Below the pieces are notes generated by a model. It was not told the origin of the DNA and searched no databases. It was given only the letters and a program-made list of their open reading frames with translations. Below are positions 7,735-57,097 of a stretch of DNA of 64,000 bases, piece after piece. Origin of the DNA: an uncultured Clostridia bacterium. Lineage in GTDB: Bacteria; Bacillota; Clostridia; Christensenellales; DTU072. The DNA lies in NCBI GenBank assembly GCA_934274515.1, contig CAKQTC010000005.1, forward strand, positions 77,193 through 141,192, given 5' to 3'. The translations under genes were made by a program, and so were the position numbers. Within the stretch, counting starts at the first letter, position 1; every line of letters starts with the position of its first letter.

Positions 7735-10700
7735 TTATTCGTATAGGGCGTCGTCGCCGTTGTTTTCGTAAACGTTGGCGTTGTTGATGTCCGTTCTTAT
7801 CGGCGTTCCTACGGGCAGGTCAAGCGAAATTCCGTTATACTCGAACCGACATTTTCTTATCGTCAGGTCACCCGTCACGCTTGTTATCGCCGTACCTATA
7901 TTGTTGCCGAATTTAGTTTCGGAGATATTGACGTTGTTTCCGCTCGTCGAAATCACGATACCGTTATAGTTTCTTTCTATCGTGCTTTCTCTTACTTCGA
8001 GCGCGCCGCCGGCAAAGTTTATCGCCATACTCACGTTGTCTATCGTCGTTTTTTCAACGTATACGCTACCCTTGTAATTAATCGAGGTTTCCACTCCCGT
8101 AACGTTGTCCGTTTTGTTCCCCGATTTGGTAATTCTGCAATTATACATACTTACCGCGCCCGCTTCGTCGCCTATAAACAACGCGGAGTTGCCCGACGTG
8201 TCGCTTTCTATCGAGATTATCCTTAGTTCGACTATACCTTTAAGCACGCGTATACCTTTAATCTTCGTTTCGATTTGCCTTACGTCTATTCCGCTTTCGC
8301 TTATGCCGCCGTTCTTCGTATAACCTACTATTTTAAGCCTTACCGCTTTATCGATAACTATCGGGTCGTACGCCGCGACGTTGCCTTCCGCGTCGATAAG
8401 CGACGACAGGTACACTATCTTATAATCACCGTCTTTAAGGTTGGCGATATATTCTTGCAGTTCCGCGTTGCTCGCTACTCCGTCCGAACCGTCTTCGCCT
8501 TCGACTTTGTATATGCCTGCCGCCTTAACGCCGTCGACAAACTCGTGCGTTCTCACAAAGATATTATAGTTCCCAAACAAGTCTATTACCGCCGCGTTTC
8601 CCTCCGCGTCTTTGTACAGGCTTCCTTCTTTGTCATAACTCTTCAACGCGAGTTTCGAGTAAATATACCCGTTAAACCCGTATTGCGCGCTGTCAAGTTC
8701 GGTATACGTCGTCGTCGCCGTCGATGAAGACGCAAGTCCGTCGATAAACGTATAATATGTTCCTACCTTGAAGTAACTGCCGAAAGTTATACCTTCCGCG
8801 TCCGCTGCCGACAGCCTAAGTATGCCTAAATCCGCAAGTTTATCTCCGCCGAGCAGTATGCCTTCTTCTTGTTCGTTTCCGTCTTCGTCGTAAACTTTAA
8901 CGTATTCCGATAAATTCGCGACGTCGGACAGATATTTCTTGTTGATATCCGCAATATCGATAAACACTTTTGCGGCGGATATTCCTATCGGTTGGTCGTT
9001 TATCTTTCCGTCGGGGTAGTTGTTCCCCCCGTCTATTTCGACCGAGCAGATATACGCGCCCGCGTTCTTTATTCCGCTCGTCGGGTTGGTAACGGAGGTG
9101 TTCGCGCTGTCTACGGTAATCTTGTTCACGACGTTACCCGATACGTCCTTAACACCCTCTACCACGACGACGAGAAGTTTTCCGTTTATAACGTACCTAT
9201 ACGTCACTTTAACGCCGAACGGAACCGTTCCGTCTTTGTGCAAATCGCTTATTTCCGGGTTCTGCACCCTGCCGTTGTAGACAAGATTTGCGGTAGCAAA
9301 CGCGTACCTTATGTTTTCGTCGCGTTCTATCCTTAAAGTAACGTTCTTGCTCTTTTCTCCCTCGACGTAGTTCGCGTTGTCTTTATCGAGATTAACCTTA
9401 ACGGTGTAGTTTCCGCAATCGGTAGGAACGTAATCGAGTTGCTCCGTTCCGTAATAATACGTAAACCGAACTTGAATTTCCACAAGCGTTATTCCGGCGT
9501 CCATCTTGCTGTCGTATATCCACGCCTTAATCTTTATGTCTTGCTCTCTGCCGACTCTGTCGTAACCGAACGTCGCCTTGCCTTCTCTGTACCAGGCGTC
9601 GAGCGCGTCTTTCGTTCTGTCCGCCACCCTGTTGTAGATAACGCCGTAAACTTCCGCTTTCGCCTCTTCTTCCGTCATTCCGTCTTTGACGTAGTTGTTA
9701 TACAACCGCGACTTCTCGCCGGGCGCAAACCAACCTGCCGGCGTAAACGCAGGCAATCCTTCGGCTACCGTAAACACGTTCGACGCGCCGTAAACGACGT
9801 TAATCGCCCCGTTCGCGTCTTCTCCGACAAACTTAACTTTGGACATATCCACTACGTACGGCTTTATGGTAAGCGTAAACAGTTTGTCGTTGTCGTATTC
9901 GATATAAACGTTGTAATCGTCCGCTCTTAACCGTACTCTTATATAGTACGTCCCCGCGTCAAGCGGTAGTTGCTCGCTCGACCATGCGTCCGCGCCCTCT
10001 TTCATATACTCTACGACGTAGTTCTCCGCAGGTATAACCGCGTGCGTTCCGTCTTCTCTAAGGAACGCCATGTCGTCTGCTTCGGCGTTAAACGGAAGTT
10101 CGTAGTATTGCGCGTTATACTCTTTTTCGAGCGTCGTGCCTTCGTTTTTCGTTCCGTCCGCTTTGGTAAACCCGATTATATGGTCGGTTATGTTTATCTT
10201 TTCGATGTAAACGCGAAGTCTGACAGACTGCCATATACCGTTCTTTATCATATAATAACCGAGTATTTCCGCTCCGTCGTTCGTCGTAGCGTGGTTCGGC
10301 ACTTCCACGTTCGCCCTGTTGACGTTTAGTCCTGCCAAATCCCAGTCGAGTTTGATTTCCTTGCCCGTTATTCTATCCCTTATCGTCGGCAGGTCGCTTG
10401 CTTTCATCGGCGTGCCTATCTTCCAGTAAATCGCGTCTACGTAATCGGGCGAAGTTTTGCTCTTCGACGTCCACTTCCATTTCTTGCCGGTCGCGTCGGT
10501 GACGAACTCAACGTCGCTTACGTCGCTCCTTTCGTAACTTTCCATCGGCATCGTGAAGTACAGTCCGCGTTTTCTCGTTCCGTTTGCGTCGTAAGCAAGT
10601 TTCGCGTCCGCTTCCTTGTCTATTCCGTAAGTTGCGTAAACGGTAACCGTCGAACCGATAAAATCGTACTGCAACGCGTCGCTTTCCGCGTTAAACGCCG

Positions 10701-19700: not shown

Positions 19701-22700
19701 TTAGTCTAAACACTTCGCTTACGTCGAAGAACAATACGTTTTCGAACGTGTTGTACTCGAATTTCTTGTCAGGTCCGAAGTAAGCGTCGTATATATCCGC
19801 GCGATAGTATGCCGCGTTGGTTAGTTGTTTGCCTTCTCCTCCGTCAACGACCGTAATCTTGCCGTTGTCGTCTTCGTCGTTTTTAATCTCGTACACGCCT
19901 TTCGACGTCATGGTTTCGCCGGAAACGAGTTCTATCTCCGTTACCGTCGAAGTAACTTCGTCTATGCTTACAAGCACGCTTATCGCGGTTTCGTTAATCG
20001 TGTCGCTGTTTATCGTCCCCGTGAGCGCGAACGACGTCGTTTTTATTTTTTTCGTAAGTCCGCGTTCGATTTCACGCAGTTTTCCTAAGTCCCAACGAAC
20101 TTCTTTCGCGTACAAAACCTTAGGGTCGTCTATCTGTATGAACGAAAAGCCCGCTACTCCCACGCCGCCGTCTTCGATAAGTCGGGCTATTCTGGCGTGT
20201 AACGCCGCGCTGTACTGCGTGTAATAACTTATTTCCGGATACCCTGCCGTAGTCGCGCCGGTATACACCTCGCCGTCCGCTTTCCCCGTGGCGAAGATGT
20301 CTATGTAATCGCTTATCTTGACGTCGCCGTCACGTTCGGATTTTATCGTACGAGAAGCGACGTTTACCGTAACGTATATATCGTTTTTAACCGCGCCCGA
20401 CGCAACGGTCATTTTAAGTTCTGCCTGTCCGCCCCTGCGGTCAAACAGATAATACCCGTCTTTGCCGTAGTATTTGTCGTAACGCGCGTCTTTGTAGTCC
20501 GCTCCGTATTCGGAGTTTCTGTAAACGGGGAATTCGCCGTAGTACCATTCGGTTTCGCCCGATACCGTTTCTCCGCTGCCCAGTTTAGCCTCGAACCGCG
20601 ACGGAAGCACGTCTTCATAACTTAAATACGGGTCGATGGATACCGCCTCGTCCTTGTCCTGCGCTCCGCCGTTTTTCAAATACAATACATATTCTTTTAC
20701 GTTACTTTCCATATTAAGCAACGCCGTCGATATGATTATTTGGCGTTTCGAGTCTTCCGAATTGCCGACGACACCGTAAACTATAAGTTTGGTTTCGTCC
20801 GTTCTCGGGTGCGCAAGCACGAAGTTTCCGTCGTCGTTTTTCTTTATAATGTTAAGTTCTTTTCCCGATACGTCCGTGGTAAGCCACCGCACGGGATATT
20901 CGACCCATTCTTTCGGGCTTTTCTCGCCGCCGTCGTAACCTGCCGGCAAATACAACCATATTCTGTCGGGAAGTCGCGCCGTCTTGTTGTACGGGTTTAT
21001 ACTGAAATAATCTATTTCCGTGATTTTGTCTTTCCCTTCCGGCTCGGTAAACTTAACCATATTCAAGTTTGCGGGCGTCGGAATCGCAGGTTCTCCGCTT
21101 GCGCTCATACTCTTTACGAGCGTGCAATCCATCTCGTCTACCCTATCGGGGGTTCTTCTGGGTGCGAGTACGCTAAGTCTAACCGTCTGAACGCTCATTC
21201 CGAGTTCTTTCCCGAACGTCGCCGTCGTCGTGTTCGTCGTCTGCGAGCCTTCTTCGCCGAACAAACCGATTACGCCGTTCAAATTCAGCCTGTTTTTCGC
21301 TTTTTCCCTTCCTGCCCATTCGAGCGAGCCGTAAACGTACTCGGTGCAGTATCTTTCCGTACTTATGCCTGCCGGTCTGGACAGCGAAACTATCCTCGTC
21401 GTTTCTCGGTCGTCGTTAAATTTAATTTTAACCGTATGCTCCGTAGAAGTGACCGTCGGTATATCGTACGTTTCCGTTTTCAACACGTCCATAACGTAGG
21501 TGTTTTCTTTATCGTCGATAATCACGCTCTTTACTTCCATTTGTTTAACCGTGATTTTTATCGCTATCTTCACGCCGCTGCCGTTTTTCTCGTCGCCGTA
21601 TGTCGCCACGGCATAACGCGTTTCTCCGCCGTAGTAAAAATAATCGTCGGTCAACTCGTTTGCGTTTATAAACTCCCATTCGAGTCCGAGTTCGGTCAAG
21701 AACATATAATTGTACCCTTCTCTGTTATAATAAAGCGGTCTTTTCTTAATTCCTTCGCCGTCGTCGTAACTCTCGTATCCGTACAAACTCTCGAAGTCGA
21801 GCATAACGTTTTGCAAAACGATGTTTTCCGCAAGGTAATCGTATTCCTTGCCTTCCTCGTTCTTTCTTATTCTCTTCATCATCGCGTGCGTGTACGGGTC
21901 GGCGACAAACTGCGCCACAACGGGTATCTGTTCTTCCCCGTTTACAAGCCTGAGTTCGTTCCCGTTGTTGTCCGTAACGGGTTTAACCGTACGATTGACC
22001 ACGCCGACGTAAATTTCTTTCTCTATGCTCGCTATGCTGTCTTTGCCGATTACGAGTTTATATTTCTTTATTCCGTCGGTTTTCTCCGCGAAAAGCGCAA
22101 GATTATACCCGTCGTGCGTCACGTTCGCGTCTTCGAATCCTTCTATTTCGCAATCGAGCGAACCGTATTCTCCTCCTTCGAACATAACGCGTATGGTCTT
22201 CGGCACTCCCGAATAAAACGCCGGGTCTATCATCAAAAACGGCGTCCTGTTCTTGTCCGCGTCGATTATTTCTCTGTCGATAATAACGTTCTTTACGCTG
22301 TAAGTTCCCGTCGTGCTGACTATTTGCAACGCGTACCCGAACTCTTTCCCGAACAACTTAGATACCGGGTTGTACTCCGTCTTTCCCGTAACGATTTTTA
22401 TGCTTTCGGGGTCGTAAGTAACGCGCATATTTATTCTCTTGTCGGAAACGGTAACGGCTACCGTTTCTTTCCACTTACTGCCGTTGGAATAAATGCTCGT
22501 CGCGGACGCGTCGTCGGGCGTATGCACCACGGGCGTGGTGTACTTCTCTTTCTCTACGCCGCTTAAATCCAACGGGTCAAACCCTATTTTGCACTTAACG
22601 CGCGCGTTCGTGTTCTTTATTCCTACGAGTTCGTTTACGGGGTCCTTCTTTTCGGTAACCATAAGGTCAACGCAGAAAAATCCGTCCGTCGTGTACGTCT

Positions 22701-24939: not shown

Positions 24940-24947
24940 TCGTTTTT

Positions 24948-41383: not shown

Positions 41384-42235
41384 TCAGTACGTCGTTTTTA
41401 CCGCTTTGCGTTTTTCGACGTCTTTTTTTATGTCTTTCCACCCCCAAGTCAAGCCTATGACGTGTACGAGTATTTCGCCGTACACCATCAACGGGCAAAA
41501 CAACCACACCAAGGGCCAGTAAAAATCGCCCGTTCTGTACCCGAACCCGTGTTTCATAAAATCGGGAACGAGCGCAGTGACGAATTTCAATTTATCCGCC
41601 ATTTGCGGCGTAAGACCGAAAATATAGCAACTGTTTCTTTCCGTCGGGTCAAGCACCATGTCTTCGAGCGTTTGGTCGGTAAACCCGACCGCTCGCAACA
41701 CGAGTTCGTTAAGCGCGATTACCCCCAACACGACGAACAGGCTTATCGGTACTTTCCAGAACCGCTTATAATTCGGACGGTGCAGTCCGTACGCAAACGT
41801 GTACGCGCCTTGCATCAAAAGCAAAACGTGCGACAAATAAAATCTTATCGTTTCCGCTCGGAACGGTTTATACCCCCACGCGCCTGTCGGAACGAAAATC
41901 GCAGCAAGTCCTCCGATAACGCTCAAAAACACGACGTAGTCTTTTGCGCCGTTCGACTTGCTCGCCATAACGAACGGGTAAATAAGCACGCTCACCGCGC
42001 AAATGTTTTCAAACGTGCATTTTCGCCAACTCATCGGATAATCGCCGCGGTATTCCGGCAAAAGCATTTTCAAAAAATGCACCGCAAGGTTAACGAGCGA
42101 TAAAACCATAACAAACGCGTACTGCGTTTTCTTATTCGCCTTTCTCAACGGGAAATATCCCGCTACCGCTATCGCAAGGCAAATAACCATATATAAAAAA
42201 TACCAAACGTTTCCCAGTTCCAACGTGGACGGCAT
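41384..42235 (-). CDS. multi-pass integral membrane protein of unknown function (possibly YwaF/TMEM164-like)
   Basis: 283 aa with AGGAG upstream and about 7 hydrophobic helices. Last gene of the ABC-2 operon. The family guess has low confidence. Confidence 0.7.
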   Translation of the reverse strand: MPSTLELGNVWYFLYMVICLAIAVAGYFPLRKANKKTQYAFVMVLSLVNLAVHFLKMLLPEYRGDYPMSWRKCTFENICAVSVLIYPFVMASKSNGAKDYVVFLSVIGGLAAIFVPTGAWGYKPFRAETIRFYLSHVLLLMQGAYTFAYGLHRPNYKRFWKVPISLFVVLGVIALNELVLRAVGFTDQTLEDMVLDPTERNSCYIFGLTPQMADKLKFVTALVPDFMKHGFGYRTGDFYWPLVWLFCPLMVYGEILVHVIGLTWGWKDIKKDVEKRKAVKTTY

Positions 42236-42266
42236 AATTTAATCTTTTCTCCTTTTTTTGCGCGCA

Positions 42267-44392: not shown

Positions 44393-47300
44393 TTATTTTT
44401 CGGGGTTCGTCCACAGGACTAGTATACGGAACGTTTTTGTAATGCTCTCGTTATTCCTTTCAAACGCCTTAACTTCCCACGCGTAATATTTTGCGTCAAC
44501 CAGCGGCACTGCCTCGTTGTTCCATTGAGCACCCTCCGCCGTTCCATCGTCCGTCGTCTTGCCCGTAGGACGATAGAACCGCATATCTTCTTCGCTCATA
44601 AGTTCGTCCTCTCCGTCTTGGAGCGGCCACGGTTTTACTATGCCGCCTATCCGATACTCCTTGCCGTCGAGCCTTAGGTAATACGTCTTTTTGCCCGTCG
44701 CGGAGTTTACCTCGCTGTTCGTGGCGTACGTTTCGATATATTTGTTAAGCGCGGTTTCGAGCGTTGCGTTTTTGCCCGTTACCGTCGCCACGTTTTCAAA
44801 TCCGTCGCCGCAAATAAGACACGACCTTTCCACTACCGTCAAATCTACTTCTTCGTAATTTTCTCCGAATACGCCTTTTACAAACGCATAACGATAAAGG
44901 TTTTCCTTCCTTCCTCCTATAACCTGCGTTTGCGGTTCGTGTTTCAATTCGAACTCGCTTTCAAACTTCCTGACTTCTCCCCAAACGAACAACGTGTCTT
45001 TGCACAGCAATTCGTTGGTGACCGAATTCGTCGAACAGTGGTATTCTTCGCTGTAATTAATCGCTTTTAACGCGACGGTAACGTCGTTTATCCATACGGA
45101 AGCAAGCCCGTCGGAACTCAAAATAAGGTACGTCAGCACGTCTGCGCCCGTTTCGTTCCTTACCGCGATAGGGAATACGAACGAGCCGTTGTCGGTGTAG
45201 AAGCAACCGTTATCGAGCGCTTCGTTCGTCGTTGCGCTCCCTGCGGCTATATTCGCTCTGTGCCGATTATACTCCGCCACCAAATCTTTCGCATAGTTCA
45301 TAAATTCTTCTTTGTCGCTAAATCCGTATAAATTCGCTATCGCCGCCTGTAAATCGACGGTTTCGGGAACGGTGTCCGCTTTTCTCGTTATGGCATACGG
45401 GTAATTCGCTCCTACCACCACGCTCTTGTTGTAATCGCCGCCTTCGGTGTCGAACGTCGCAACCGCCCCTTTATAAACGTCTATCGCTTTTTGATAAAGA
45501 TTGCTAAACGCGTTTAACGTCGAGAGAGAAACCGTTCCCGCGTATTCCGTTCCGTCCGTCGGTATCGTATGGTGCGACATAAACGTTGCGAACTGCGTGC
45601 TTAGCGTCTTTATTTTTCCGATCGTATCGGCAGACGGCGTCTTCGTCGTATGTTTGGTAAGGTTTTCGATATTTCCGAACTTTCCTGCTATCATTCCGAA
45701 GGGGTTGCAGTCGTCGTATTTGACGTAAACGTTCTCCCCGTTGTATCCCACTAGTTCGCTTTCGTACAGTTTGGAACAACGCCTGTTTCTGCACTGCTCC
45801 ACCGCGCAATAGTGTTCGGTCGCGGTTTCTTCGGTCGTGCCGCTGATAAACTCGCTGCAAACGTGTTTAACGAATATCTCCGCCATTATCTCGCTCCGTC
45901 CTTCCGTCGTCGCGAAACTTACGTAGAACACGTTGTAAAGCGTTCCGTCGTACCCTTCGGATAGGTCGTAGAACATTCCGTCGTCGTCCATCGTCACCAT
46001 TCCGTTATACGCTCTAAACATCGCGTCGTCGCGCCACGCTCTTCCTATATCGTTGGCAAATCTCGGCGTAACGGTGGCGTTGGATATAATTGTACCGTCA
46101 TATCCGACCATCTTTTCAAGCACCGCGTTAATCGCGGATACGTTTGCCCTCATCGCCGTTACCAAATTGTTTTTCGCTCTGTATCCCGTTTGTTCGCCCG
46201 TTCCGTAACTTTCGTATTCGATTTGTTGTTGCCCTAAATCGAACGTAACGGGAACTACCGTGTCGCAGTGTTTACACGGTCTGCCGAGCACCGTCCTTCC
46301 GAAATAATTCGCCACGACGTACGGTTTGGTTTCGTCCGCTTCGTGCGCGCCTATGTCCGCGATTTTTCCGCAAGAAGAACATCTGTGAATAATCGAGGTT
46401 CCGTTGTTATACGGTTGATAAGAATTACAAATATGGTTAATTTTCGCGGTGTACGAACCCGTTGTCGAAACGCTGAGCGTTTTGCCCGTTTCCGCGTCAA
46501 CGAGAACGACGTAGATAAGGTCGTACGCTACTTTGAGCGTTTCGTCGCCGTTAAGCACCCTTTCCGTTCTCTCTCGCAACTCGGTAAGGGGCGTCGTGAC
46601 ATCGCCTACGTTCGCTCTTGCAAAGTACGACTTACCGTCTATAAAGAACGCGTACCCTTTCAACGCCTCGTTCAAGTCTTCCGCCGTTCTCATATCCCCG
46701 ACGACGGTAAATTCTACCGACGGGGCGTCTTCTCTCGTGCAACGCGCGCACGCGTGGGTCAGCACTTTGTCTCCGCTGTCCACGTATCCGAAAGTATACC
46801 CCGGCAACCCGTCTTGTCCGAACGACGTCGCGTTTAGCGTCCCTCGTTCTTCGCAAGCGTGTTCGGGCGAATACGCCGCTTTGCAGCCGTCCGTAGCGCA
46901 AACGTATTTTCCGCTCGTTCCGTCGTAAACGTATGCGTTGTGGTTATGTTTTACGCCGATTATTATCTTATGTTCGGAGCCGACTCTCGTCGCCGCGACT
47001 CCGAAATATTCTATGCCGCCGAATACGAACATAAACAAGTAGTTATCTCCGACCGTTCCGCTCGTAGCGTCAATCGTCACGTTATATTGCGCGTTTATCT
47101 CGTTTTGCATACTTGCGATTTGCGTATCGCCGTCGTGCTGTCCGACGTTGAGTATTCCGTTGGAATCGCCGCAATTTTGACAAACGTACTCTATCGCGTA
47201 ATAATCCGTTCCCGCAAATCTGTCGATAAACGTTTCTTTCGTGCTATCGTATTCGTGGTTGGCTTGTTCTCCCTGCGCCTCTTCTCCGCAACCGATACAA

Positions 47301-50300
47301 ACGTGTTTACCGTTTTCACAGATATAATAGTGGTTTTCGTCCGTATGCTCGATAAGAATATAGTTGGTATCGGGCTCGCTGTCCACGTCTATCGGTATGG
47401 CGTAGTATTTTTTCGTTTTGTCTACGGTAAGGTCGTCTTTTTTAAGATAAACGAGTTTTCTTTCCGCGTATTTAATTAACGGTTCGTCTTTGTCGAACGC
47501 GAAGTTTACCTTGACGAACACCCTTTTGCGTTCTCCGTTGTCTAAAATTTCCACGCGGTGCAGATAATTCATCGCATTAAATTGTTTAATCGTAGTCGAA
47601 GCGTCCGCAATGGCTATTCCCTTGCTCGTTTTATACGCGCAGTAATCGCAACTCTCGCCGTAAACGCCCAGCGCGTTTTCATTTGCGTCGTCAACGAAAC
47701 ACGCGTTTCCGAGGCGGCTTAGGTTTTTCTTTTCGTAAGTGTGTTGTTCTTCCCAACCGCATACGCTGCAATAATGTCCGCTGCCGTCCGCCTTAGGAAT
47801 GAACGTGTGCAATCCCGTCGCCGGGGTGACGTTTTTCCTTTCGTGACGAATTTCAATCTTCGTGCCGTCTTCCAGCGTGCCGACGTACTCGTAAATACAT
47901 CTGTCGCCGCCTTCTTCTCCGCAAGTCGCCGAATGCGTCTTGTACGACGCGGCGGTGCAGTTGCTTACCACAAAACCGCTCGTTTTGCCGAAAATCTCGT
48001 ACTCGTATTTTACGGTTTTTATATCTTCCGACTTAACTTTGCCGGTATTTGTGCCGTTGTCGTACCCGATAAAACTGTTTCCTTCGAGTTCGTCCGCGCT
48101 ACCGACGAACATCCAACCGCGATTGTCGATAAACACGCCGCTTACGGCAAGGTTCGTTCCCATCTCAAAAGAAACTTTATGCACGGTAAGCGTTCCGAAA
48201 TAATGTTCCGCGCCGCCGCCGTTCATAAGATAAAACTCTTCCGCGTGTACGTCCGCACCGTTTTGAAGAACAATCCTGCCTTCTCTTACGTCGTCGCCGG
48301 TTATAACCAACTGCCCGTACTTGCTTGCTTCCGCGTTGTTTATCTTAACTTCGATTTTCGCGCGGACTTTTATCTTCCCGTATACGAACATAGCGTTGCT
48401 CTTTTTCGTAAAGAACTTCGTATCGCCGTTAATATCCGCGTCGTATCTCGTTGTTCCCTCTATGCTTATCTCGTTGCCTGCGCCCGACAACGTAAGCGTC
48501 TTAGGCTGTCTTTCGTCGCTAAGCGCAACCGAACCGTTTATCACGACTTTCTCGGTAAATTCCGTGTTTGCGCCTAACAAAAGTTTCTCGTTTATCGTAA
48601 ACTTTCCGCCAAGAGCGACGTCGTTACCGTACACGGAAACGATTCTCGTCGTAATCTCGGTCTCTTTCGGGTTCACCGTCGTCGCATTGCCGTTTTTCCT
48701 TATTTCCACGGTTGCGTCAGTAAGCGTCAACTCGCTTATATAAGCGTCTTCGTATAGAATAATCTTTCCTCCGAACACTTCTACCTTGCCCGACAACGAC
48801 GAATACTCTATATCGGCTTCGTCCTGATCGTAAACGTCGTTCCCTATCGATATCGTGCCGTAGTTTTCGATAACGCCTTTTTCCGACAACGCTAAACGTC
48901 TGAAAAAGTTCGCGCTTGCGCTCTCGTTGATCGTCATTCCCGAAGTAAGATCGATCGTACCGTAGTTTCCTTCGGCGGTCTTCGTCACACTAAACGCTCC
49001 GCCGACGATAAGTTCTTTTCCTTCTAAGGCGGATTTAGCCCCGATTATTCTTCCGCTTGCGGACACGTTTCCGCTTGCTGTCACCGCTCCTCCGACTATG
49101 CCGAGCGTTCCCGATACGTTTCCGTTACTCCACACCAAGTCTTGAGCAACCACCAGCGTTTTCTCTTTTTCGACGTCGCCGCCGTAAGTAAGTCCGCCGC
49201 CGATTACTCTTACGTAGTTCGAAAAATTCAGCGCTTCCGCTACGTCGGTATGCTCCGTTACGTAACGAACGGTACTTAACGTTCCCGTCGCGACTTCGAG
49301 GGAAAGAACCGAGCAGTTTTGGAAAATTCTCGTCCTGCTGCCGTTATACTCGTACACGCCGTCGCCCGCGCCGAACTCCGCCGCGTTTTTATAAAGTACA
49401 ATTTCGTCCCCGACAAGCGAATACTGTTCTGCGTCGTCGCTTGCTCCGCTCTTTACGTCAAACGTCTGTACGAGGGCGGCTTTTCTTCCGATAATCGTTG
49501 CCGTACTTAATTCGAGGGTTTTTCTCGCCGTTCCGTCGTTAAGCACTTCTTCTCTGTCGTACCCGACGTACAATATCGCGTCGCCGTTTTCGTTTTTCGC
49601 CGTAGCGGTCGCGGTCAATTCCGCGCTTACGTTGTTGCCTGCCTGCCCTTTGTCTTTTTCGACGATGACTATCGCGCCTTTATACAGCCCGTTGTTTTCC
49701 GCATTAACTCCCCTCTCGGCGGTCGCGGTTACCTCTCCTTTAAGCAGGTACTTCCCTGCTCCGACGAGTATCGCGCCTGCGTCCGTTCCCGCGATAACGC
49801 TGCCCGCTTCCGCGACCAACGCCGCGTCGGAATCGGACGGTTCTCCCGTTTCGCTTATGTATAGCGCGGTTTTACCCGTTATCGAACCCGTTCCTAAAAG
49901 TTTGACTTCCAACGCCCGCCCGACTATCTTGACGGCAGTTCCGCCAACGGATTCCACGACGCCGCCTATTTCCGCTTTCGCGCCGATTGCGCTGCTTTCC
50001 ATAAGCAATCCGTACGTCTTGCCTCTTACCGCGCCGTTTATCGTCGCTTTGTCGCACATAAGAGCAACGCCTTCTTCGCTTATTATCTCCGCGCCGCTCT
50101 CGACGGTAACGTGTAATTTGGCGTCTATCGCGTTGTTCTTCGCTTTAATCGTTCCGCTTTCCACGAAAAGATAGCCCGTATCCGCTTGCCCTCTTATTAT
50201 CGCTCCGCCGTTTTCGGTCGCCTTAAAGTCGGCGTTTTGTATCCTTAAATTGCCGAAAAGGGTCATTCCGCCGTTTTTAATCGATAAAGTATACCCGTTA

Positions 50301-53300
50301 AAATCGAGCGTCGTGTCCGCTTTGGGCGTTTGTACGTTGAACTCGTCGTACGTCGCGCTCCTTTCCAAAACAATCGTTCTCTTCTCGTTCGCCGAATCGT
50401 TAAACCCTTTTTCAAGCGACCCGAAATAACTCTTTACGTTGTTTCCGAGAGCGGACACCGCCGCCGATACCGTCCACTTAACGCCGCTTGCCGCGCCGCC
50501 GTACTCTTTCAATCTCAGCACCGCGTCGTCCTCTATCGCAAGGAACGAACCGCTTTCCGCCGTATACGTAGAAAGCGTCGCGGTAAAGTCTACCGCAAGC
50601 GTCGCGTCTTTTTTTACGCCTATCCCGTAACTCGAATCCTGCGTGTAGTCTTTGTTAATTCTCAATTCGCCCGTGACTACGGTATAAGTAAACCGCGATC
50701 CGTTGGAATACAACTCGGTCGTTCCGCTCGTTACTCTCAAACCGCTGTCGGTCGCGCTAAGGTCTACGCCGTCGTTGAAAAATTTCTTTCCGTCTACCGT
50801 AACCGCCGCGTTTTCCGTTACGCGAATTCTGCCTACGAGTCTACCTTTCGCGTTAAGCGTTTTTCCGCTCATCGTACAAGACGAGCCCGTTTCCGTAACC
50901 ACTTTGAACGTGTTTACCGACAATTCGTAACTGTCGCCGCTAAACGTTACTTTCGCTCCCTCGTTTATCGTAAACTCTTCGCCGTTTACGACAAGATTTT
51001 CCGTAAAGTCCATATCCGCCGCGATTACCCTGTGCGTGTATTCGGCGTACGCGTTTTTCTCGCCGAAATCGTCTTTGGTAAACGCAATCGCCCTGAATAC
51101 GACGTTTTCGTCTTTCTTCTCGACGTTCGAGCCGGTTTCGGGCGTAAACTTACCCTTTATCGTGGTTTCCGCGGCGATATTGAGTTTCGCTCCCGTCGCC
51201 ACGACGAGTTCGTCTTCCTTTTCCACTGTAACGGAGCCGTTCGTCTTCATCGCGCCGTTTATCGTCGCCTTTATCCCGGTTCCCGTCTTGACCGCGTTTA
51301 CCGCGCCGTCTTCGTTTTCCGCGACAAACCACACCCCGTTCATGCTTTTCCCGAACGCTCTTATCGTGTTTATCTTTCCTTTTATCGAACTAAACGCATA
51401 CGCATCGACGGAAATTTCGCTCACGTCCTCGTTTATGGCGACGCTGTTTATCGACGCTCCGCGGAACGCGTATTTACCTACCGAAAGAGATTGTCTTACG
51501 GGAATATTTACCGTGGTGACGCCCGTTTCCGCAAACGCGCTCGCTCCGATAACAAGCGGCTTGACCGCGTCCGCCGCGATTACAAACCTTGTAAGTCTTT
51601 CGGTTTTTGAAAACGCGTTTTCTTTTATTTTCGTTACGTTATTGCCGAATCTGACCGTCATTCCGCTTTCCGCGCCCGACCCGTAGAACGGGTTTGCCGT
51701 GCTGCTCATTTCATAATCGTCGCCGTTAATTTCAAAATCGATTTCACTAAGCGCGTTCATATGCGCAAACGCGTACGCACCGATACTCGCGACGTTGGAC
51801 GGAACGGCAATTTTCTTTACCGACCCGACGTTGTAAAACATTCTTGCAGGAACGCGTTTCACGTTCGCGCCTATCGTAATCGCGACGTCTCCGATACTTT
51901 GCATATTCATAAACGGCGAAGAATCGGTTGAACTTACGTCGCCGCCGTTTTCCACGTCGTACGTTATGTTTTTAATTCCGCGCGCGCCTTCGAACACGCT
52001 AACGCCTATATATGCTTTTTTACCGCCTAAATAAACGGTTTTTACGCCTACCGCGCCGTAAAACGCCTGTTTCCCCAACGTTACCGTGTTCGGAAGTTTT
52101 ATTTCGTCCGCAGGGGTTTCTTTATCGCGCTCGGTAATCGAAGTAAAGCGTCTTAACGCGCTTATTGCGCTCGTCGCGCTTCCGCCGCCTGCGGCGAACG
52201 CCCTTTCTTCTATTGCGGTTATACCGTTTTCTCCGCGATAATACACCGACTCCAAGTCCATGCAGTTTGAAAATGCGGCTACGCCTATCGACGTTATTTC
52301 TTCGGACAGTATGACGGTTTTTAATTTGCTGTTCGCGAATGAGGACGCGTCAACCGCTGTAAGTCCGCTTCCTTCGAAGTCGAACTCGGTAAAGTTTTTA
52401 CATCCTTCGAACGCGCTCGATTTTATGCTTTTCAGTCTGCCGTTCGGTTCGAGCGTTCTCATTCCCGAATATGCAAAAGCCCCTTCCCCTATCGTAACGG
52501 ATTTCTCTTTTCCTTGCTCGAAAACGACGGAAAAAAGGTATTTCGCGCTTTTTTCGTTCGACCCGCCGAACAATCCCTTGGGGACGACCGTAACCGCCGA
52601 CCCGATCGTAAGCGTAATTCCGCTCGTGTTCTCTCCGGCGTCGTCGAATACGTTTATTCCGATAGAATGATTTACCGTCTGTACGGAATTGTAGAAAATG
52701 TTCGTTAAGTTACTCGTTTTCTCGAACGCTTTCGCGCCTATGTTATTCACGTTTTTTCCGAGATAAACTTCGCTAATCGCGCTACACCCGGAATACGCTC
52801 TTCCGCCTATTTCGACAACCGCGTCGGTAATTCCCGTTTCGGCAAGGGATATGCACCCTTCGAACGCGCTTGCTCCTATGGTTTTTATCGTGTTCGGAAG
52901 AGTAACTTTCACCAGGCTTCTCATCCCCTTAAACGCTTCGTTCGCTATCGTAACGACTTCTTTTCCGTCCGAGCCTTTTTCGGGTACGGTTATCTCGTTG
53001 TAATGCATACGGAAATATTGAGAATAGTTAGGCGTGTCTTTTATCGTTCCGTTAAGTTTGCCTTCGCCCTCGTACGTTTTTACGAGCCTTATAAGATAGC
53101 ACGACAAATAAACGTGCGACGGGGCTTTGTTCGATTTTTTCTCGTGCGTGTATTTCCACGTGCCGTCCGGATTCGCCCCGTTCTCTTTGAACCCTTCTCC
53201 TTCGGCATCCGTCGAAAGAAGCGCGTTTTTATCGTACCAACCGCTAAACATAGCGCCTTCGTATTCGAGCCCTTCCGCGGCGGCGATTTGTTTCACTCTT

Positions 53301-56300
53301 TCCTCGGTTGCCAACGAAACGGTTTGTTTGAGTTTTACCGTGTAATACGCTCCGTCGTTGTCTTGACAAGTCGTAACGAAACGGTTGTTTAGCGATTTTA
53401 GCGAATCCGACGCCGTATAAACGGTATAATAAATTCGATAATCTATGTCTTCTTTTTCCGTTACTACTTCCACGGAATTCGTATATTGTTTCGTTCTTCC
53501 GCGCGCTTCGGGGCTTGTTTCCGTGCCGTAGGGATAAGAAAGCGTTTCTTCGTCAAACCCCGTCGGTATGGTTTCTTTCTCCGCCGTCGCGTCGGACGCG
53601 TCGGAAATAACGAAAGCGGTTACTTTCCTGCCCGACATCATCATATCTCGGCAGGAATATTTTATTTTTAACGCGCTGCCGTACTCGAAAGATATAGCCG
53701 TAGCGTACTCTTCGCTGCCGTCAACGGCTATTTGCGTTTCGTCTTTCGACGTCGCCGTAAACGTTTTTACGGAAAATCCCGCTTTTATTTTGCAGTCGTC
53801 GGTAAGGAACAGCGTAATCGTGTCGTCGTCGTTTACCCTGTATTTGAACGTGTATCTACCCGAATACGCGGTTGCCGATAAAATCTTGCCTACTTCCGCG
53901 CCCGTTACGGTAAACTCCGCGTAATCGTTGATGTTCGACCCGGCGGTTATGCGCCATCTCGTGAAGTCGTAACCCGTGGGGGAATGTCTTTTTATCGTGT
54001 ATTCCGAAAAATACAACCGTTTACTCACCGTGTACTCTCCGTCGTCGTAGTTCGTTTCCGAACCCCCTTCGACTATTTTTTTAACTTCCGCGGTGTTGAT
54101 TGCCGTCCCCGCGTTCCCGTCGAAACGGAAAGTGTCCTTTTCCAACGTTACGCTGTATTTTCTCAGGTTAAGCGTGCCGTACGCCCATAAATCGCCGTCG
54201 GGCATGGTTGCGCCTGAATACGGCTTGTCGTCAAACATTCTCGACCAGCCGCCGAAATCGTACCGTGCCTTAGTCGCGTTGATAAGCGCGTCCGCCACCG
54301 AATCGTTATAAACAAGACCCGTTATCGTAGCGTCGCGCAGATACTCGTCCTGCCCGACCAAAAGTTTGTTAAGTTTATAATATTTTTCTCCGTCTACGAG
54401 TTTGTACTCGTTTTTGTCGATTTCCGCACACGCGCTGAGCGGATTTTCCTCGTCGTTCTGCTCGTAGTCCGTTCTGACATAGTATGTAATCGTAAACTCG
54501 TTTTGTTTGGACGAAAACGAATAAACGACATTGTCCGCGTCGGATACGAGGGCAAACGTCGCTTCCCCTTTGTACCTGTCGTCAGAGTTTTCGACGTATG
54601 AATACCCTTCTTCCGCGTCAAGAGTTTTGCCGTTTGCCTGTACGCCGTCTATCGAGCGACCCCTTTCGAGCGACACCGAAAAGACGAACTTCGCTCCGTA
54701 AGGAACGATATAACTGTCTGCGCCGTATTTGTATTTTTCGGGCGAATTGCCGTTTATCGTCTTTATTTCGGGCTTTATTCCTTCTTTAAGGGAAATCGTG
54801 ACGTTATGGCTCTTTATCGTACAGACCGAACGTACTACGACGTCTTTTTTCGGCATACTGAACTCGCCGCTTACGTCCAACCCCTCGCCGTCGGCGACCC
54901 AGTCGCTTACCGTCCAGTGCTTCGCTTCGAATTTAAGCGCAAGGTCGTACGCCGCGTTCTCCCCGCCTTTAATCGTATATTTATCGTCAAGGGTAACCTT
55001 TTCGCCGTACTTTTTCGACACAACTCTTACCGCATAACCTTCTTTGTACGTACCGGGCATAAAAAACGTTTCGTCGTTCGTTACGTCCGTTCCGTCGTAA
55101 ATCATTTTGAAAATATAAGTTATGGTATATCTCCTGTTTTGGAAAACGCAGGTAAATTTTTCGTTGCCTTTAACCGTGTAAAAGAAAGAATACGTTATTC
55201 TTTCTCCTTTTACGGGTTCTTCTTTGCTCTCGATTCTGTCGCTCGCATCTTTTTCTTCCGTGTCTTTCCACTGCAAAAATTCGTACCCTTCAAACGCAAC
55301 GACGTAGAATTCGATAATGCTGCCGTAGGCATAGGAACCGCTCTTTACTCCGTTCGAACCGCCTATTCTCGCTTCGCCGTACTCGGACATAACGCCCGAT
55401 AAATCGACAAGGTATCTTCTCGCGGAAAACGAACCGGTAACTTGCACGTTTCTGTTCGGCATATTCGACGGCGTCTTTCCCTCTCCGACGCTTTGCCATT
55501 GTCCGAATTCGTAATGCTCCATCTCCGGCACTTTCGCAAGCATAATCCCGTCGTTGTAGTTATAATGCTCTTCTTTGACGAAAATTCCGTTTTCGCGCTT
55601 CTCGAACCCTGCGCCGATAATCGCTTTTTCCATATCTTCGTCAAGAAAATATTTGCCGTTTATGTTACAGTTAAGCGTATAGGTAAGTAAATAATCCTTG
55701 TCTTCGAACCTGCCGCGTATGAGCGTGTTCGACCCGCCCGCAATCTTTACGCCGAGTTTTTCGAGTTCGGCAAGCGTAAACGAACCGCTTTCGGGTATGC
55801 TCGTAGCCGATACGTCGGCAGCCGCAACGGTAACGACGGTTTTTTCTTTTTCGGAATAATAAACCGCTTTCTTTTCTCCGCCGTCTTCTTCGTAAACGAG
55901 ACAGAACGAGCCGTCGCCGGTACGCGCAAGCACCGCCGTTTTTCCTCCGTAAGCAATCGTCCAATCAAGAAAATTCTTACCCGTAGGCACCGCGCCGATT
56001 AACACGATGTCTTCGTTTTTTCCGTACGAACCGCTGCCTCCGCCGCTTACGACGGTAACTTTATACGCTTCGCGGTACTTCGCCGAAAACGTGTACGTCT
56101 TATTCGCTTTTACAAATTCCTGATTTAAGTCAAAATAGAAACTCGATACGGTCGCTATGCTCTGTTTTATCTCTTTTTCCGTCCCGTTTTCGATTTCCGT
56201 ATAAGATAATTCCCAGCCGAAACACGCCATATCCGTTATTTCGTCCGCTTTTATTTCCACCGAACCGTCTTCGACGTAGGCTTTGAATTTGCGCTGTTCT

Positions 56301-57097
56301 TCGCCGGTGCCGCCGTTTTTGATGACGACGTAAACGTACGGGTTCTCTTCGTAAACGGCGACGAAAAGCGTGCTTGTTCCGTCATACGGTTCGAGCGAAA
56401 CGCCGTTTTTGTCGGTAACCTTTTTGCCGTTTGCTTCCCAACAAACGAATTTATGCCTGTCTTTGACGGGAACGGGCAAAGAATAGTCGTATCCGCTAAG
56501 CAACGCGCCGTCGTACGACGCCGTCGAGCCGAACGCCGTTACCGTTACGTTCTGATTGTCCGCTTTCCCTCCGTTGTAAGACAAAGTAATCTTCTTATCG
56601 CTCGCGTAAACGGCACGCACCACCGCGTCTTCCGTTACGACGTATTCCGCGTTCCGCTCGTACGACAACGGTTTGTCGTTTGCCACCCAACAAACGAATT
56701 TCATATCCGCGACCAAATCGGCGGAAAGAGCGATTTTCGTCCCGTATGCGTACGCTCTCGACCGGTTATTCTCTCCGCTTATTATCTGCACGGTTCTCAC
56801 CGCGTCGGAAAACACCCCTCGAATAGTGACGTCGGTCGTAACTTTGTAGACCAAACTCTTTTCCGTCGAATAACGCTCCCCGTTTACTTCCCAGTACTCG
56901 AACTCCTGTCCTTGCGCAACGTTCGGGGTAAGGGTAATCGTCGCTCCGACGTCGTACTCCTTGGTTTCGGTAAACGAACCGTTGACAATCGTAACAGTCT
57001 TCTTCCCCGATAAATCCTGCTCGGAACAAGCCGTAATCCCGAAAGCGAAAATTATCGCCGCGATAATTACGAAAACGACCGTCAATTTGCGTTTCAT
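44393..57097 (-). CDS. giant surface lipoprotein 3 (4234 aa) with Listeria-Bacteroides repeats, BspA-type LRRs, beta-helix-like repeats and Cys/His-rich modules
   Basis: Start moved to ATG 57097 (GGAGG 7 nt upstream). MKRKLTVVFVIIAAIIFAFGITAC is a lipobox signal peptide. Flg_new-type repeats with F.GW/F..W motifs (nt ~53100-57000). LRR_5-type repeats such as TLPNTIKTIGASAFEGC and IKSSAFEGCKNF (nt ~51355-52990). G/T/A/V-rich beta repeats (nt ~48000-51350). CxxC/His modules (nt ~44800-47950). Confidence 0.9.
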   Translation of the reverse strand: MKRKLTVVFVIIAAIIFAFGITACSEQDLSGKKTVTIVNGSFTETKEYDVGATITLTPNVAQGQEFEYWEVNGERYSTEKSLVYKVTTDVTIRGVFSDAVRTVQIISGENNRSRAYAYGTKIALSADLVADMKFVCWVANDKPLSYERNAEYVVTEDAVVRAVYASDKKITLSYNGGKADNQNVTVTAFGSTASYDGALLSGYDYSLPVPVKDRHKFVCWEANGKKVTDKNGVSLEPYDGTSTLFVAVYEENPYVYVVIKNGGTGEEQRKFKAYVEDGSVEIKADEITDMACFGWELSYTEIENGTEKEIKQSIATVSSFYFDLNQEFVKANKTYTFSAKYREAYKVTVVSGGGSGSYGKNEDIVLIGAVPTGKNFLDWTIAYGGKTAVLARTGDGSFCLVYEEDGGEKKAVYYSEKEKTVVTVAAADVSATSIPESGSFTLAELEKLGVKIAGGSNTLIRGRFEDKDYLLTYTLNCNINGKYFLDEDMEKAIIGAGFEKRENGIFVKEEHYNYNDGIMLAKVPEMEHYEFGQWQSVGEGKTPSNMPNRNVQVTGSFSARRYLVDLSGVMSEYGEARIGGSNGVKSGSYAYGSIIEFYVVAFEGYEFLQWKDTEEKDASDRIESKEEPVKGERITYSFFYTVKGNEKFTCVFQNRRYTITYIFKMIYDGTDVTNDETFFMPGTYKEGYAVRVVSKKYGEKVTLDDKYTIKGGENAAYDLALKFEAKHWTVSDWVADGEGLDVSGEFSMPKKDVVVRSVCTIKSHNVTISLKEGIKPEIKTINGNSPEKYKYGADSYIVPYGAKFVFSVSLERGRSIDGVQANGKTLDAEEGYSYVENSDDRYKGEATFALVSDADNVVYSFSSKQNEFTITYYVRTDYEQNDEENPLSACAEIDKNEYKLVDGEKYYKLNKLLVGQDEYLRDATITGLVYNDSVADALINATKARYDFGGWSRMFDDKPYSGATMPDGDLWAYGTLNLRKYSVTLEKDTFRFDGNAGTAINTAEVKKIVEGGSETNYDDGEYTVSKRLYFSEYTIKRHSPTGYDFTRWRITAGSNINDYAEFTVTGAEVGKILSATAYSGRYTFKYRVNDDDTITLFLTDDCKIKAGFSVKTFTATSKDETQIAVDGSEEYATAISFEYGSALKIKYSCRDMMMSGRKVTAFVISDASDATAEKETIPTGFDEETLSYPYGTETSPEARGRTKQYTNSVEVVTEKEDIDYRIYYTVYTASDSLKSLNNRFVTTCQDNDGAYYTVKLKQTVSLATEERVKQIAAAEGLEYEGAMFSGWYDKNALLSTDAEGEGFKENGANPDGTWKYTHEKKSNKAPSHVYLSCYLIRLVKTYEGEGKLNGTIKDTPNYSQYFRMHYNEITVPEKGSDGKEVVTIANEAFKGMRSLVKVTLPNTIKTIGASAFEGCISLAETGITDAVVEIGGRAYSGCSAISEVYLGKNVNNIGAKAFEKTSNLTNIFYNSVQTVNHSIGINVFDDAGENTSGITLTIGSAVTVVPKGLFGGSNEKSAKYLFSVVFEQGKEKSVTIGEGAFAYSGMRTLEPNGRLKSIKSSAFEGCKNFTEFDFEGSGLTAVDASSFANSKLKTVILSEEITSIGVAAFSNCMDLESVYYRGENGITAIEERAFAAGGGSATSAISALRRFTSITERDKETPADEIKLPNTVTLGKQAFYGAVGVKTVYLGGKKAYIGVSVFEGARGIKNITYDVENGGDVSSTDSSPFMNMQSIGDVAITIGANVKRVPARMFYNVGSVKKIAVPSNVASIGAYAFAHMNALSEIDFEINGDDYEMSSTANPFYGSGAESGMTVRFGNNVTKIKENAFSKTERLTRFVIAADAVKPLVIGASAFAETGVTTVNIPVRQSLSVGKYAFRGASINSVAINEDVSEISVDAYAFSSIKGKINTIRAFGKSMNGVWFVAENEDGAVNAVKTGTGIKATINGAMKTNGSVTVEKEDELVVATGAKLNIAAETTIKGKFTPETGSNVEKKDENVVFRAIAFTKDDFGEKNAYAEYTHRVIAADMDFTENLVVNGEEFTINEGAKVTFSGDSYELSVNTFKVVTETGSSCTMSGKTLNAKGRLVGRIRVTENAAVTVDGKKFFNDGVDLSATDSGLRVTSGTTELYSNGSRFTYTVVTGELRINKDYTQDSSYGIGVKKDATLAVDFTATLSTYTAESGSFLAIEDDAVLRLKEYGGAASGVKWTVSAAVSALGNNVKSYFGSLEKGFNDSANEKRTIVLERSATYDEFNVQTPKADTTLDFNGYTLSIKNGGMTLFGNLRIQNADFKATENGGAIIRGQADTGYLFVESGTIKAKNNAIDAKLHVTVESGAEIISEEGVALMCDKATINGAVRGKTYGLLMESSAIGAKAEIGGVVESVGGTAVKIVGRALEVKLLGTGSITGKTALYISETGEPSDSDAALVAEAGSVIAGTDAGAILVGAGKYLLKGEVTATAERGVNAENNGLYKGAIVIVEKDKGQAGNNVSAELTATATAKNENGDAILYVGYDREEVLNDGTARKTLELSTATIIGRKAALVQTFDVKSGASDDAEQYSLVGDEIVLYKNAAEFGAGDGVYEYNGSRTRIFQNCSVLSLEVATGTLSTVRYVTEHTDVAEALNFSNYVRVIGGGLTYGGDVEKEKTLVVAQDLVWSNGNVSGTLGIVGGAVTASGNVSASGRIIGAKSALEGKELIVGGAFSVTKTAEGNYGTIDLTSGMTINESASANFFRRLALSEKGVIENYGTISIGNDVYDQDEADIEYSSLSGKVEVFGGKIILYEDAYISELTLTDATVEIRKNGNATTVNPKETEITTRIVSVYGNDVALGGKFTINEKLLLGANTEFTEKVVINGSVALSDERQPKTLTLSGAGNEISIEGTTRYDADINGDTKFFTKKSNAMFVYGKIKVRAKIEVKINNAEASKYGQLVITGDDVREGRIVLQNGADVHAEEFYLMNGGGAEHYFGTLTVHKVSFEMGTNLAVSGVFIDNRGWMFVGSADELEGNSFIGYDNGTNTGKVKSEDIKTVKYEYEIFGKTSGFVVSNCTAASYKTHSATCGEEGGDRCIYEYVGTLEDGTKIEIRHERKNVTPATGLHTFIPKADGSGHYCSVCGWEEQHTYEKKNLSRLGNACFVDDANENALGVYGESCDYCAYKTSKGIAIADASTTIKQFNAMNYLHRVEILDNGERKRVFVKVNFAFDKDEPLIKYAERKLVYLKKDDLTVDKTKKYYAIPIDVDSEPDTNYILIEHTDENHYYICENGKHVCIGCGEEAQGEQANHEYDSTKETFIDRFAGTDYYAIEYVCQNCGDSNGILNVGQHDGDTQIASMQNEINAQYNVTIDATSGTVGDNYLFMFVFGGIEYFGVAATRVGSEHKIIIGVKHNHNAYVYDGTSGKYVCATDGCKAAYSPEHACEERGTLNATSFGQDGLPGYTFGYVDSGDKVLTHACARCTREDAPSVEFTVVGDMRTAEDLNEALKGYAFFIDGKSYFARANVGDVTTPLTELRERTERVLNGDETLKVAYDLIYVVLVDAETGKTLSVSTTGSYTAKINHICNSYQPYNNGTSIIHRCSSCGKIADIGAHEADETKPYVVANYFGRTVLGRPCKHCDTVVPVTFDLGQQQIEYESYGTGEQTGYRAKNNLVTAMRANVSAINAVLEKMVGYDGTIISNATVTPRFANDIGRAWRDDAMFRAYNGMVTMDDDGMFYDLSEGYDGTLYNVFYVSFATTEGRSEIMAEIFVKHVCSEFISGTTEETATEHYCAVEQCRNRRCSKLYESELVGYNGENVYVKYDDCNPFGMIAGKFGNIENLTKHTTKTPSADTIGKIKTLSTQFATFMSHHTIPTDGTEYAGTVSLSTLNAFSNLYQKAIDVYKGAVATFDTEGGDYNKSVVVGANYPYAITRKADTVPETVDLQAAIANLYGFSDKEEFMNYAKDLVAEYNRHRANIAAGSATTNEALDNGCFYTDNGSFVFPIAVRNETGADVLTYLILSSDGLASVWINDVTVALKAINYSEEYHCSTNSVTNELLCKDTLFVWGEVRKFESEFELKHEPQTQVIGGRKENLYRYAFVKGVFGENYEEVDLTVVERSCLICGDGFENVATVTGKNATLETALNKYIETYATNSEVNSATGKKTYYLRLDGKEYRIGGIVKPWPLQDGEDELMSEEDMRFYRPTGKTTDDGTAEGAQWNNEAVPLVDAKYYAWEVKAFERNNESITKTFRILVLWTNPEK

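Follow-up and report, generated by a model that had tools for sequence, protein, structure and literature searches.

Two adjacent giant genes of an uncultured Clostridia bacterium encode a candidate family of paired, lipid-anchored, non-repetitive surface proteins

In a 64,000-nucleotide stretch of DNA from an uncultured Clostridia bacterium (GenBank assembly GCA_934274515.1, contig CAKQTC010000005.1; hereafter "the window", whose numbering is used below), two adjacent minus-strand genes encode predicted giant lipoproteins of 4301 and 5714 amino acids (aa). We call these genes B and A, in the order of transcription, and interpret the B-A pair as a new family of giant surface fibres that come in pairs, are anchored by an N-terminal lipid, lack repeats and carry a glycan-directed tip. 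We infer the function from sequence and predicted structure and put the probability of this interpretation at roughly 0.55. A third giant gene of the window, C, appears from its sequence to be a separate, conventional mosaic adhesin-type lipoprotein built with Flg_new domains and BspA-type leucine-rich repeats (LRRs).

Gene B (24948-37853, minus strand) is a 12,906-nt open reading frame (ORF) for a protein of 484 kDa and is the first gene of the cassette; gene A (7735-24879, minus strand) is a 17,145-nt ORF for a protein of 639 kDa and is the second. Gene C (44393-57097, minus strand) encodes 4234 aa (462 kDa) and is unrelated to A and B. Together the three genes occupy 42.8 of the 64 kb of the window, and their products have isoelectric points (pI) of 4.8-4.95. 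The longest ORF of C spans 44393-57130, but the ATG at 57130 has no Shine-Dalgarno site while a GGAGG lies 8 nt upstream of the start at 57097, which is therefore preferred. GGAGG-type sites precede all three genes, in line with the strong Shine-Dalgarno sequences listed in a first-pass annotation of the window. That annotation had also described three intact minus-strand ORFs of 5714, 4301 and 4234 aa, which the ORF calls, the selection on A and B and the recovery on independent contigs confirm. Its description of the proteins as megadalton-scale does not hold: at 0.46-0.64 MDa each, they are large and not megadalton-sized.

The exact protein sequences recur on several independent contigs from NCBI, ENA and Logan, the longest of 321 kb, and in a sister strain (locus L001) the genes are likewise intact and arranged in unchanged order. 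Measured against three relatives of increasing distance, the ratio of nonsynonymous to synonymous substitution rates (dN/dS) is 0.11-0.22 for A and 0.13-0.25 for B, values which indicate that both genes are under purifying selection. Within A, B and C there are no tandem or dispersed DNA repeats other than the LRR units of C, and self-comparison of the proteins by BLASTP recovered no internal repeats even at E ≤ 5. In the absence of DNA or protein repeats that could cause it, repeat-driven mis-assembly is unlikely.

The N-termini of all three proteins conform to the G+LPPv2 and PROSITE PS51257 lipobox rules. The signal peptide and lipobox of A (24799-24879, minus strand; MIAC, Cys27) are followed by an acidic, Pro-rich tether, and the corresponding segments of B (37770-37853, minus strand; FTGC) and C (57026-57097, minus strand; ITAC) end in Cys28 and Cys24, respectively. 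Nearly all complete members of the A family (~45) keep the lipobox at residues 23-30 and continue with an acidic Gly/Pro-rich tether. The lipobox also recurs in three divergent B orthologues; in two distant lineages it reads LVAC (locus L012) and LIAC (locus L016). No further hydrophobic segment and no LPXTG motif were found in A, B or C, and a Pfam scan of the three proteins returned no SLH or choline-binding domain. The first-pass reading of type II signal peptides with a lipobox cysteine, and of no other recognisable anchor, is thus upheld for the three proteins and, for the lipobox, extended to orthologues of A and B. These observations support A, B and C as predicted lipid-anchored giant surface proteins.

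A giant same-strand ORF lies directly 5' of the A-like gene in every related locus for which upstream DNA is available (L001-L004, L006-L014 and L016-L018; L005 and L015 are cut by contig ends). In L001-L004, L006-L012 and L014, BLASTP identifies this ORF as a collinear B orthologue with 28-98% identity, and the orthologues align up to the last residues of B except in the most distant locus, L012. Loci L013 and L016-L018 were counted as B-A on the basis of the called gene and its size, plus the lipobox in the case of L016. The tally for the conserved B-A order is 14 of 14 related loci with upstream DNA. The gap between the two genes ranges from -4 to 114 nt across loci. The B/A lengths in seven lineages (4301/5714, 6418/6703, 2846/4351, 3803/5249, 3164/3782, 4301/6803 and 4365/5672) are correlated (r=0.81, p=0.03). 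Downstream of the pair, each lineage has different genes: mscL in the window and ldh/fumarase, prfB/uvrD, an oxidoreductase, rnpA/yidC or secG elsewhere. Therefore, only the B-A pair itself is conserved.

In the window, the transcription signals also fit a two-gene unit. A σ70-type promoter precedes B (TTGACA-17-TATAAT, 12/12 consensus positions; 37911-37939, minus strand), and a strong intrinsic terminator with a 13-bp stem followed by a T-run lies 3' of A (7670-7703, minus strand). The 68-nt spacer between the genes contains a GC-rich hairpin (24919-24939, minus strand) that has no U-tract on the mRNA and so is not a terminator in the B-to-A direction. As judged from these signals, B and A are predicted to form one operon, with the promoter at 37939-37911 and the terminator at 7703-7670 as its ends. 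In the distant lineage L012 (23053-30948 in that locus) and in L013 (GCA_965340135.1 / GCA_965337965.1), B-A is translationally coupled to four more genes, which encode (i) a 1665-aa protein with an N-terminal transmembrane helix, (ii) a 235-aa lipoprotein, (iii) a 549-aa protein and (iv) a type I signal peptidase of family S26. The 1665-, 235- and 549-aa proteins have no Pfam match. These four genes, absent from the window, may encode accessory or assembly factors.

When A aa 1-1200 served as the query of an exhaustive HMMER search, 1.84 billion protein representatives yielded only 65 relatives. Nearly all complete relatives are lipoproteins of 3466-6860 aa that are collinear with A from residue 1 to ~5710 at 22-49% identity (BLASTP). 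A conservation profile built on a phmmer-anchored alignment has three zones: the N-block (aa 1 to ~1400) and the C-block (aa ~4200-5714) are conserved, and the middle (aa ~2900-4200) is dispensable and found only in close relatives. One member is named in NCBI only as "hypothetical protein [Clostridia bacterium]". Scanning GTDB species genomes with a 4-sequence alignment located nine A-family loci, all in metagenome-assembled genomes, with the labels uncultured Catabacter sp. (82% identity), Christensenella sp., Christensenellales bacterium and Clostridia bacterium. For two of the nine, the records point to a human (Hadza) sample and to roe-deer rumen, and a cluster-mate of a neighbouring gene is also from Christensenellales. 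Scans of metagenome contigs for the A family and for C found nothing. The B-A unit has so far been found only in uncultured gut Christensenellales-type Clostridia.

Sequence searches leave most of both families without annotation. A matches no Pfam family at E ≤ 0.01, gives only noise in 600-aa tiles at E ≤ 10 and has no NCBIfam match. Among the C-blocks of 16 orthologues, Pfam finds MBG_3 in seven, Beta_helix in six and NosD in four. Since the orthologues return these matches, the MBG-like and PbH1 beta-helix modules that had been noted in A are right for the family, and structure prediction recovers the beta-helix as well (see below); the window copy itself falls below the Pfam threshold. 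B has no Pfam (E ≤ 0.01), NCBIfam or PDB sequence match. Its family is darker than that of A: the sole Pfam match across B and 11 orthologues is Big_4, in 2 of the 12 sequences, so that the reported Big_4-like immunoglobulin (Ig) module is recovered in orthologues only. The further remark that very long stretches match nothing is borne out by the zero Pfam matches of A and B and the dark C-terminal half of C. B also contains a cysteine cluster, C3921xxC ... C3942xxxxC ... C3967xxxxC (aa 3921-3972; 25938-26093, minus strand), which is conserved in 7-8 of 12 aligned B-family sequences and looks like a zinc-ribbon-type knuckle within an extracellular protein.

BLAST of A against B detected only weak N-proximal similarity. 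Profile comparison with hhalign aligned A aa ~110-806 with B aa 169-920 as homologous regions (probability 99.8%, E 5e-30), and the motifs FDxxTxxYLGFxLS, LPKVY and IGDxTGxNTPY are common to both. The sequences thus show a basal module of ~700 aa that A (22462-24552, minus strand) and B (35094-37349, minus strand) share through common descent. No other part of the family is as well conserved, and no other part is common to A and B; when the C-block of A was compared by hhalign with the C-terminus of B, the two proved unrelated.

AlphaFold2 modelled A aa 41-1000 from an 18-sequence alignment with a mean predicted local distance difference test score (pLDDT) of 82.9 and a predicted TM-score (pTM) of 0.61. 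In this model, several alpha/beta domains with antiparallel strands of 10-15 residues and helices, in which the basal module of A lies, are followed by small beta-sandwiches. Foldseek against the PDB matched the N-block to the Ig-rich protein BbgIII and then to LolB, LolA, RseB, DUF1329 and BFA1 at probabilities of 0.75-0.98, with vitellogenin and lipopolysaccharide (LPS)-binding protein (LBP) at 0.06-0.16. The LolB/LolA-type matches are weak (TM-score 0.15-0.38, root-mean-square deviation [rmsd] 9-22 Å); for LolA/LolB-like barrels as such, Foldseek gave probabilities of 0.84-0.98 with TM-scores of 0.29-0.38. Pfam scans of the N-blocks of 18 members, one by one, found no consistent family and no LolA-type match, and N-block and C-block profiles gave only noise against PDB sequences. 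We therefore treat a LolA/LolB-like fold of the basal module as a lead from modelling and not as membership of that family.

For the other end of A (aa 4760-5714; 16 sequences), AlphaFold2 reached a mean pLDDT of 86.8 and predicted a beta-solenoid at the C-terminus, preceded by about seven beta-sandwich domains and one helical insert. The predicted distal stalk (aa ~4760-5459; 8503-10602, minus strand) is a chain of Ig-like/cadherin-like beta-sandwiches with the helical insert, in which each Ig-like domain (aa 4760-5460) is unique in sequence. Its Foldseek matches include the neck of the GhpA grappling hook, cadherin ectodomains and the S-layer protein SbsC (probability 0.38-0.75). The predicted tip (aa ~5460-5714; 7738-8502, minus strand) is a right-handed parallel beta-helix with PbH1-type coils, with block-mean pLDDT values mostly of 85-95, and PbH1-like repeats are visible in its sequence. 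Foldseek matched it at probabilities of 0.99-1.00 to polysaccharide lyases of families PL6, PL3 and PL1, chondroitinase B and Lam55A. A Foldseek comparison with viral structures gave nothing meaningful. Overall, confidence is good for the predicted domain folds of ~1,900 residues of A, the terminal beta-helix among them. The basal module is a candidate for a new domain family, as are several other blocks.

From these data we propose the following arrangement. Given their signal peptides, A and B would be exported by Sec, and the lipobox rules and lipobox conservation suggest that each is lipidated on its lipobox cysteine and tethered to the outer face of the cytoplasmic membrane. Each chain starts, by sequence, with a short acidic tether followed by the shared basal module. 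The rest would be a very long chain of unique, non-repeated and mostly beta-rich domains, as AlphaFold predicts for 1,915 of the 5,714 residues of A and as we extrapolate for the remainder; such a chain, if extended, would reach far past the cell wall. A is predicted to terminate in a right-handed beta-helix of the pectate-lyase/tailspike type. The basal modules would hold or organise both chains at the membrane, the pair would be a length-matched and probably physically associated surface fibre, and the distal tip would bind or cut polysaccharide on food particles, host mucus or other microbes. We read the pair as a fibre because export, lipid tether, shared basal module, long chain and beta-helix end point in this direction together.

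Four points weigh against this interpretation. First, the structural models cover only the 1,915 residues of A just mentioned and, for B, nothing beyond the basal module. Second, the best fold matches of the basal module are lipid-handling proteins, which fit simple anchoring only loosely. Third, the beta-helix of the window's own A is below Pfam thresholds. Fourth, the physical association of A with B is argued only from synteny, paralogy and a seven-point length correlation.

There are several other possibilities for the pair. The most far-reaching makes B and A two subunits of an undescribed Christensenellales organelle. In it, a heterodimeric, length-matched fibre of ~10,000 unique residues would stand on paralogous LolA-like basal modules that come together at the membrane, where each might shelter the lipid anchor of the other or bind lipids of the envelope, and the beta-helix tip would mediate the cell-cell or cell-glycan contacts that underlie the ecology of this host-associated group. 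We regard this as possible but speculative.

The tip alone could suggest that A acts chiefly as a polysaccharide lyase or hydrolase anchored to the cell, with its catalytic beta-helix kept at a distance from the surface and B as an accessory scaffold. The closest folds of the tip are indeed enzymes (PL6 alginate lyase, PL3/PL1 pectate and pectin lyases, chondroitinase B and Lam55A glucanase, at the probabilities given above), and the tip is conserved across the A family. However, adhesins and tailspikes without catalytic activity have the beta-helix fold just as commonly, and no CAZyme-type Pfam match was found besides the generic Beta_helix and NosD. A search with aa 5380-5714 detected no shorter relatives of the tip, although this search was uninformative since it missed even A's own cluster, as did searches of this kind with A aa 1-1500 and, for B's cluster, with B aa 1-450. 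On balance, a primarily enzymatic role seems unlikely.

The basal module raises a different possibility, namely that A and B form a scaffold for handling envelope lipids or lipoproteins, with basal half-barrels that bind acyl chains or lipid-linked polymers, and serve as organising or transfer devices rather than adhesins. This would account for the Foldseek matches to LolB, LolA, RseB, DUF1329 and BFA1, and more weakly to vitellogenin and LBP, as well as for the module being the most conserved part and the only one that A and B have in common. The low TM-scores, the high rmsd and the missing LolA-type Pfam and PDB profile matches speak against it, as does the location of ~85% of each protein outside the basal module. 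In addition, an Ig-like stalk with a beta-helix end, as in A, is typical of outward-facing fibres, and no transporter is conserved beside the pair. We thus consider a lipid-handling scaffold rather unlikely.

Could A and B instead build a structural coat, an S-layer-like or sheath-like layer rather than discrete fibres? The Foldseek matches to SbsC, the strong σ70 consensus promoter and the acidic pI of 4.8-4.9 would be in keeping with such a layer. The SbsC matches are weak (probability 0.38-0.75), though, there are no SLH or other wall-binding domains, and the stalk-plus-tip layout and lengths of 4-7 thousand aa are atypical of lattice-forming S-layer proteins, which makes a coat quite unlikely. 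A contact-dependent weapon or polymorphic toxin on a giant stalk, to which the giant size, the extracellular location and the resemblance of the Ig-like chain to the GhpA grappling hook of a predatory bacterium might point, is highly improbable and was rejected: the C-terminus of A is conserved and not polymorphic, Pfam finds no toxin domain, A is followed by a terminator and then mscL with no immunity-like gene, and the genes downstream of the pair are unrelated and differ in every lineage. Finally, although the source DNA is probably from a metagenome-assembled genome, an assembly artefact or decaying pseudogenes are effectively excluded by identical proteins on several independent contigs, intact orthologues in at least 14 loci, dN/dS of 0.11-0.25 and genes free of repeats.

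Among known systems, the fibrillar adhesins of Firmicutes (Monzon et al. 2022, PMC9210967) are the closest conceptual class. A resembles them in being very long, acidic and predicted to be extracellular, with an Ig-like (MBG-type) stalk segment and a distinct distal domain, and in having its anchor at one end and a putative binding domain at the other. The great length and surface anchor of that class are found in A, B and C (4234-5714 aa, lipobox), with an anchor type that is atypical for it: fibrillar adhesins use a C-terminal LPXTG, so that the N-terminal lipid of A, B and C reverses the polarity of anchoring. Their tandem-repeat stalk is not seen, as BLASTP self-comparison at E ≤ 5 found no internal repeats, and the Ig-like domains predicted in the stalk of A each differ in sequence. 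Furthermore, unlike fibrillar adhesins, A and B are almost without known stalk or adhesive Pfam domains and form an obligate pair of different giants that share a basal module.

The closest organisational analogue is the tandem array of giant extracellular proteins in Lactobacillus (Apilactobacillus) kunkeei, which comprises six positional orthologue families and whose proteins end in a conserved sequence of 60 residues (Tamarit et al. 2015, PMC4494060). As with A and B, adjacent giant genes take up a sizeable share of a Firmicute genome, the products have an N-terminal export signal and no recognisable domains or database homologues, and positional orthologues are more similar than neighbours (PMC4494060). 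B-A differs in comprising exactly two genes, in the lipobox and shared N-proximal module of their products, and in the beta-helix at the C-terminus; this comparison was made by description. The giant Clostridia proteins of West-Roberts et al. are made of repeats, with RCC1, Flg_new, LRR and similar domains as building blocks, whereas A and B are non-repetitive and end-to-end collinear with their relatives.

Two structural likenesses are more remote. GhpA of Aureispira (PDB 9flp), a long Ig-like chain in a giant surface filament, is the best structural match to the distal stalk of A, yet the match is weak (E 4e-5, TM-score ~0.1, 9% identity) and comes from a different phylum; nothing here suggests GhpA-like hooks or predation for A and B. 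The open beta-barrel lipid-binding domains of LolA, LolB and RseB type are recurrent Foldseek matches to the shared basal module, for which ~11 long antiparallel strands plus helices are predicted, with low TM-scores and no sequence or profile similarity. These domains are normally small periplasmic proteins of diderms rather than parts of 5,000-aa proteins.

Gene C is not similar to A or B, nor to any of their relatives. Its BspA-type LRR region (aa ~1380-1640; 52178-52960, minus strand) matches Pfam LRR_5 at 2e-65 and BspA-type LRR proteins in the PDB (4fs7 at 3e-26), with a partial match to NCBIfam HupY/LrrG, which places BspA-type LRR_5 repeats in C. Pfam also identifies a Flg_new_2 (InlB B-repeat-like) domain (56804-56992, minus strand), and further Flg_new and Flg_new_2 copies lie at aa ~509-616. 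The "recognisable adhesin modules" of the first-pass annotation are therefore clear in C and only marginal in A and B. The combination of LRR_5 with Flg_new and Flg_new_2 is that of BspA-like LRR/Listeria-Bacteroides-repeat surface proteins, from which C differs by its lipobox anchor and by ~2,300 C-terminal residues, from aa ~2000 onward, that match no domain. In this Pfam-dark half, at least three CxxC-(33-38)-CxxC modules of the pattern C[SI]xCG...CxxC occur at aa 3110-3611 (~46264-47770, minus strand), and 33 of the 53 cysteines of C fall in the last ~1,200 residues. The modules may be repeated metal-binding mini-domains.

Between B and C lie a housekeeping ecfA-ecfA'-ecfT-truA operon (ecfA1-ecfA2-ecfT-truA; 38069-41361, plus strand), divergent from B, and a TMEM164-like gene. 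The gene order ecfA1-ecfA2-ecfT-truA is typical of Firmicutes. Because this operon stands between them, B-A and C are separate transcription units. C has its own predicted σ70-type promoter (TTGACT-16-TATAAT, 11/12; 57171-57198, minus strand). A 31-codon ORF (MKFKRNNDDFRRVKGWGGAIDFFKVYIIILN; 57161-57256, minus strand) upstream of C overlaps the predicted -35 and -10 elements of C and has exactly the Shine-Dalgarno context (AAGCGGAGGAA) of A; it could encode a leader peptide or be open by chance. Directly 3' of C are genes for an ABC ATPase, an ABC-2 permease and a TMEM164-family membrane protein (41384-44269, minus strand). No terminator was predicted in the 123-nt gap between C and the ABC-2 transporter genes, which may be co-transcribed with C.

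The three giant genes had also been seen as one specialised surface system next to dedicated regulators. The part of this claim that survives is the dedicated unit of B and A; C is unrelated and separate, and only B-A is conserved across loci. An extracytoplasmic function (ECF) sigma factor gene followed by two consecutive RsgI_M anti-sigma-like genes (453 and 532 aa) is located at 1709-5182 (plus strand), and Pfam finds no match in the C-terminal sensor regions of the two RsgI_M proteins. A second ECF sigma factor gene (57412-57939) is followed by an unannotated 406-aa gene. ECF sigma/RsgI-like genes adjoin B-A only in the window and its near-identical sister strain, and the neighbours are unrelated in six other lineages. 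Moreover, the promoters of B and C are of σ70 consensus type, and no convincing ECF-type motif is common to the upstream regions of the sigma factor genes and the giant genes. The idea that the three genes form one system with regulators of its own was thus rejected, with only B-A conserved and the sigma/anti-sigma linkage restricted to the sister strain.

Literature searches returned nothing relevant on Christensenella surface proteins or giant bacterial lipoproteins, and no mention of the A or B family in searchable papers. Giant extracellular fibres and adhesins are an already known class; judged by sequence, A and B are almost entirely unlike any described family within it. Most Christensenellales, a widespread group of gut bacteria, are uncultured, and to our knowledge nothing is known of their surface structures. 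The B-A unit amounts to ~10,000 residues per genome, which purifying selection maintains as two genes across many lineages and which have no domain annotation. If the reading of B and A as subunits of one organelle were true, they would be a new class of non-repetitive, lipid-anchored giant fibre and not a variant adhesin. The B-A locus is a defined target for cryo-electron tomography, surface proteomics and glycan-binding studies.

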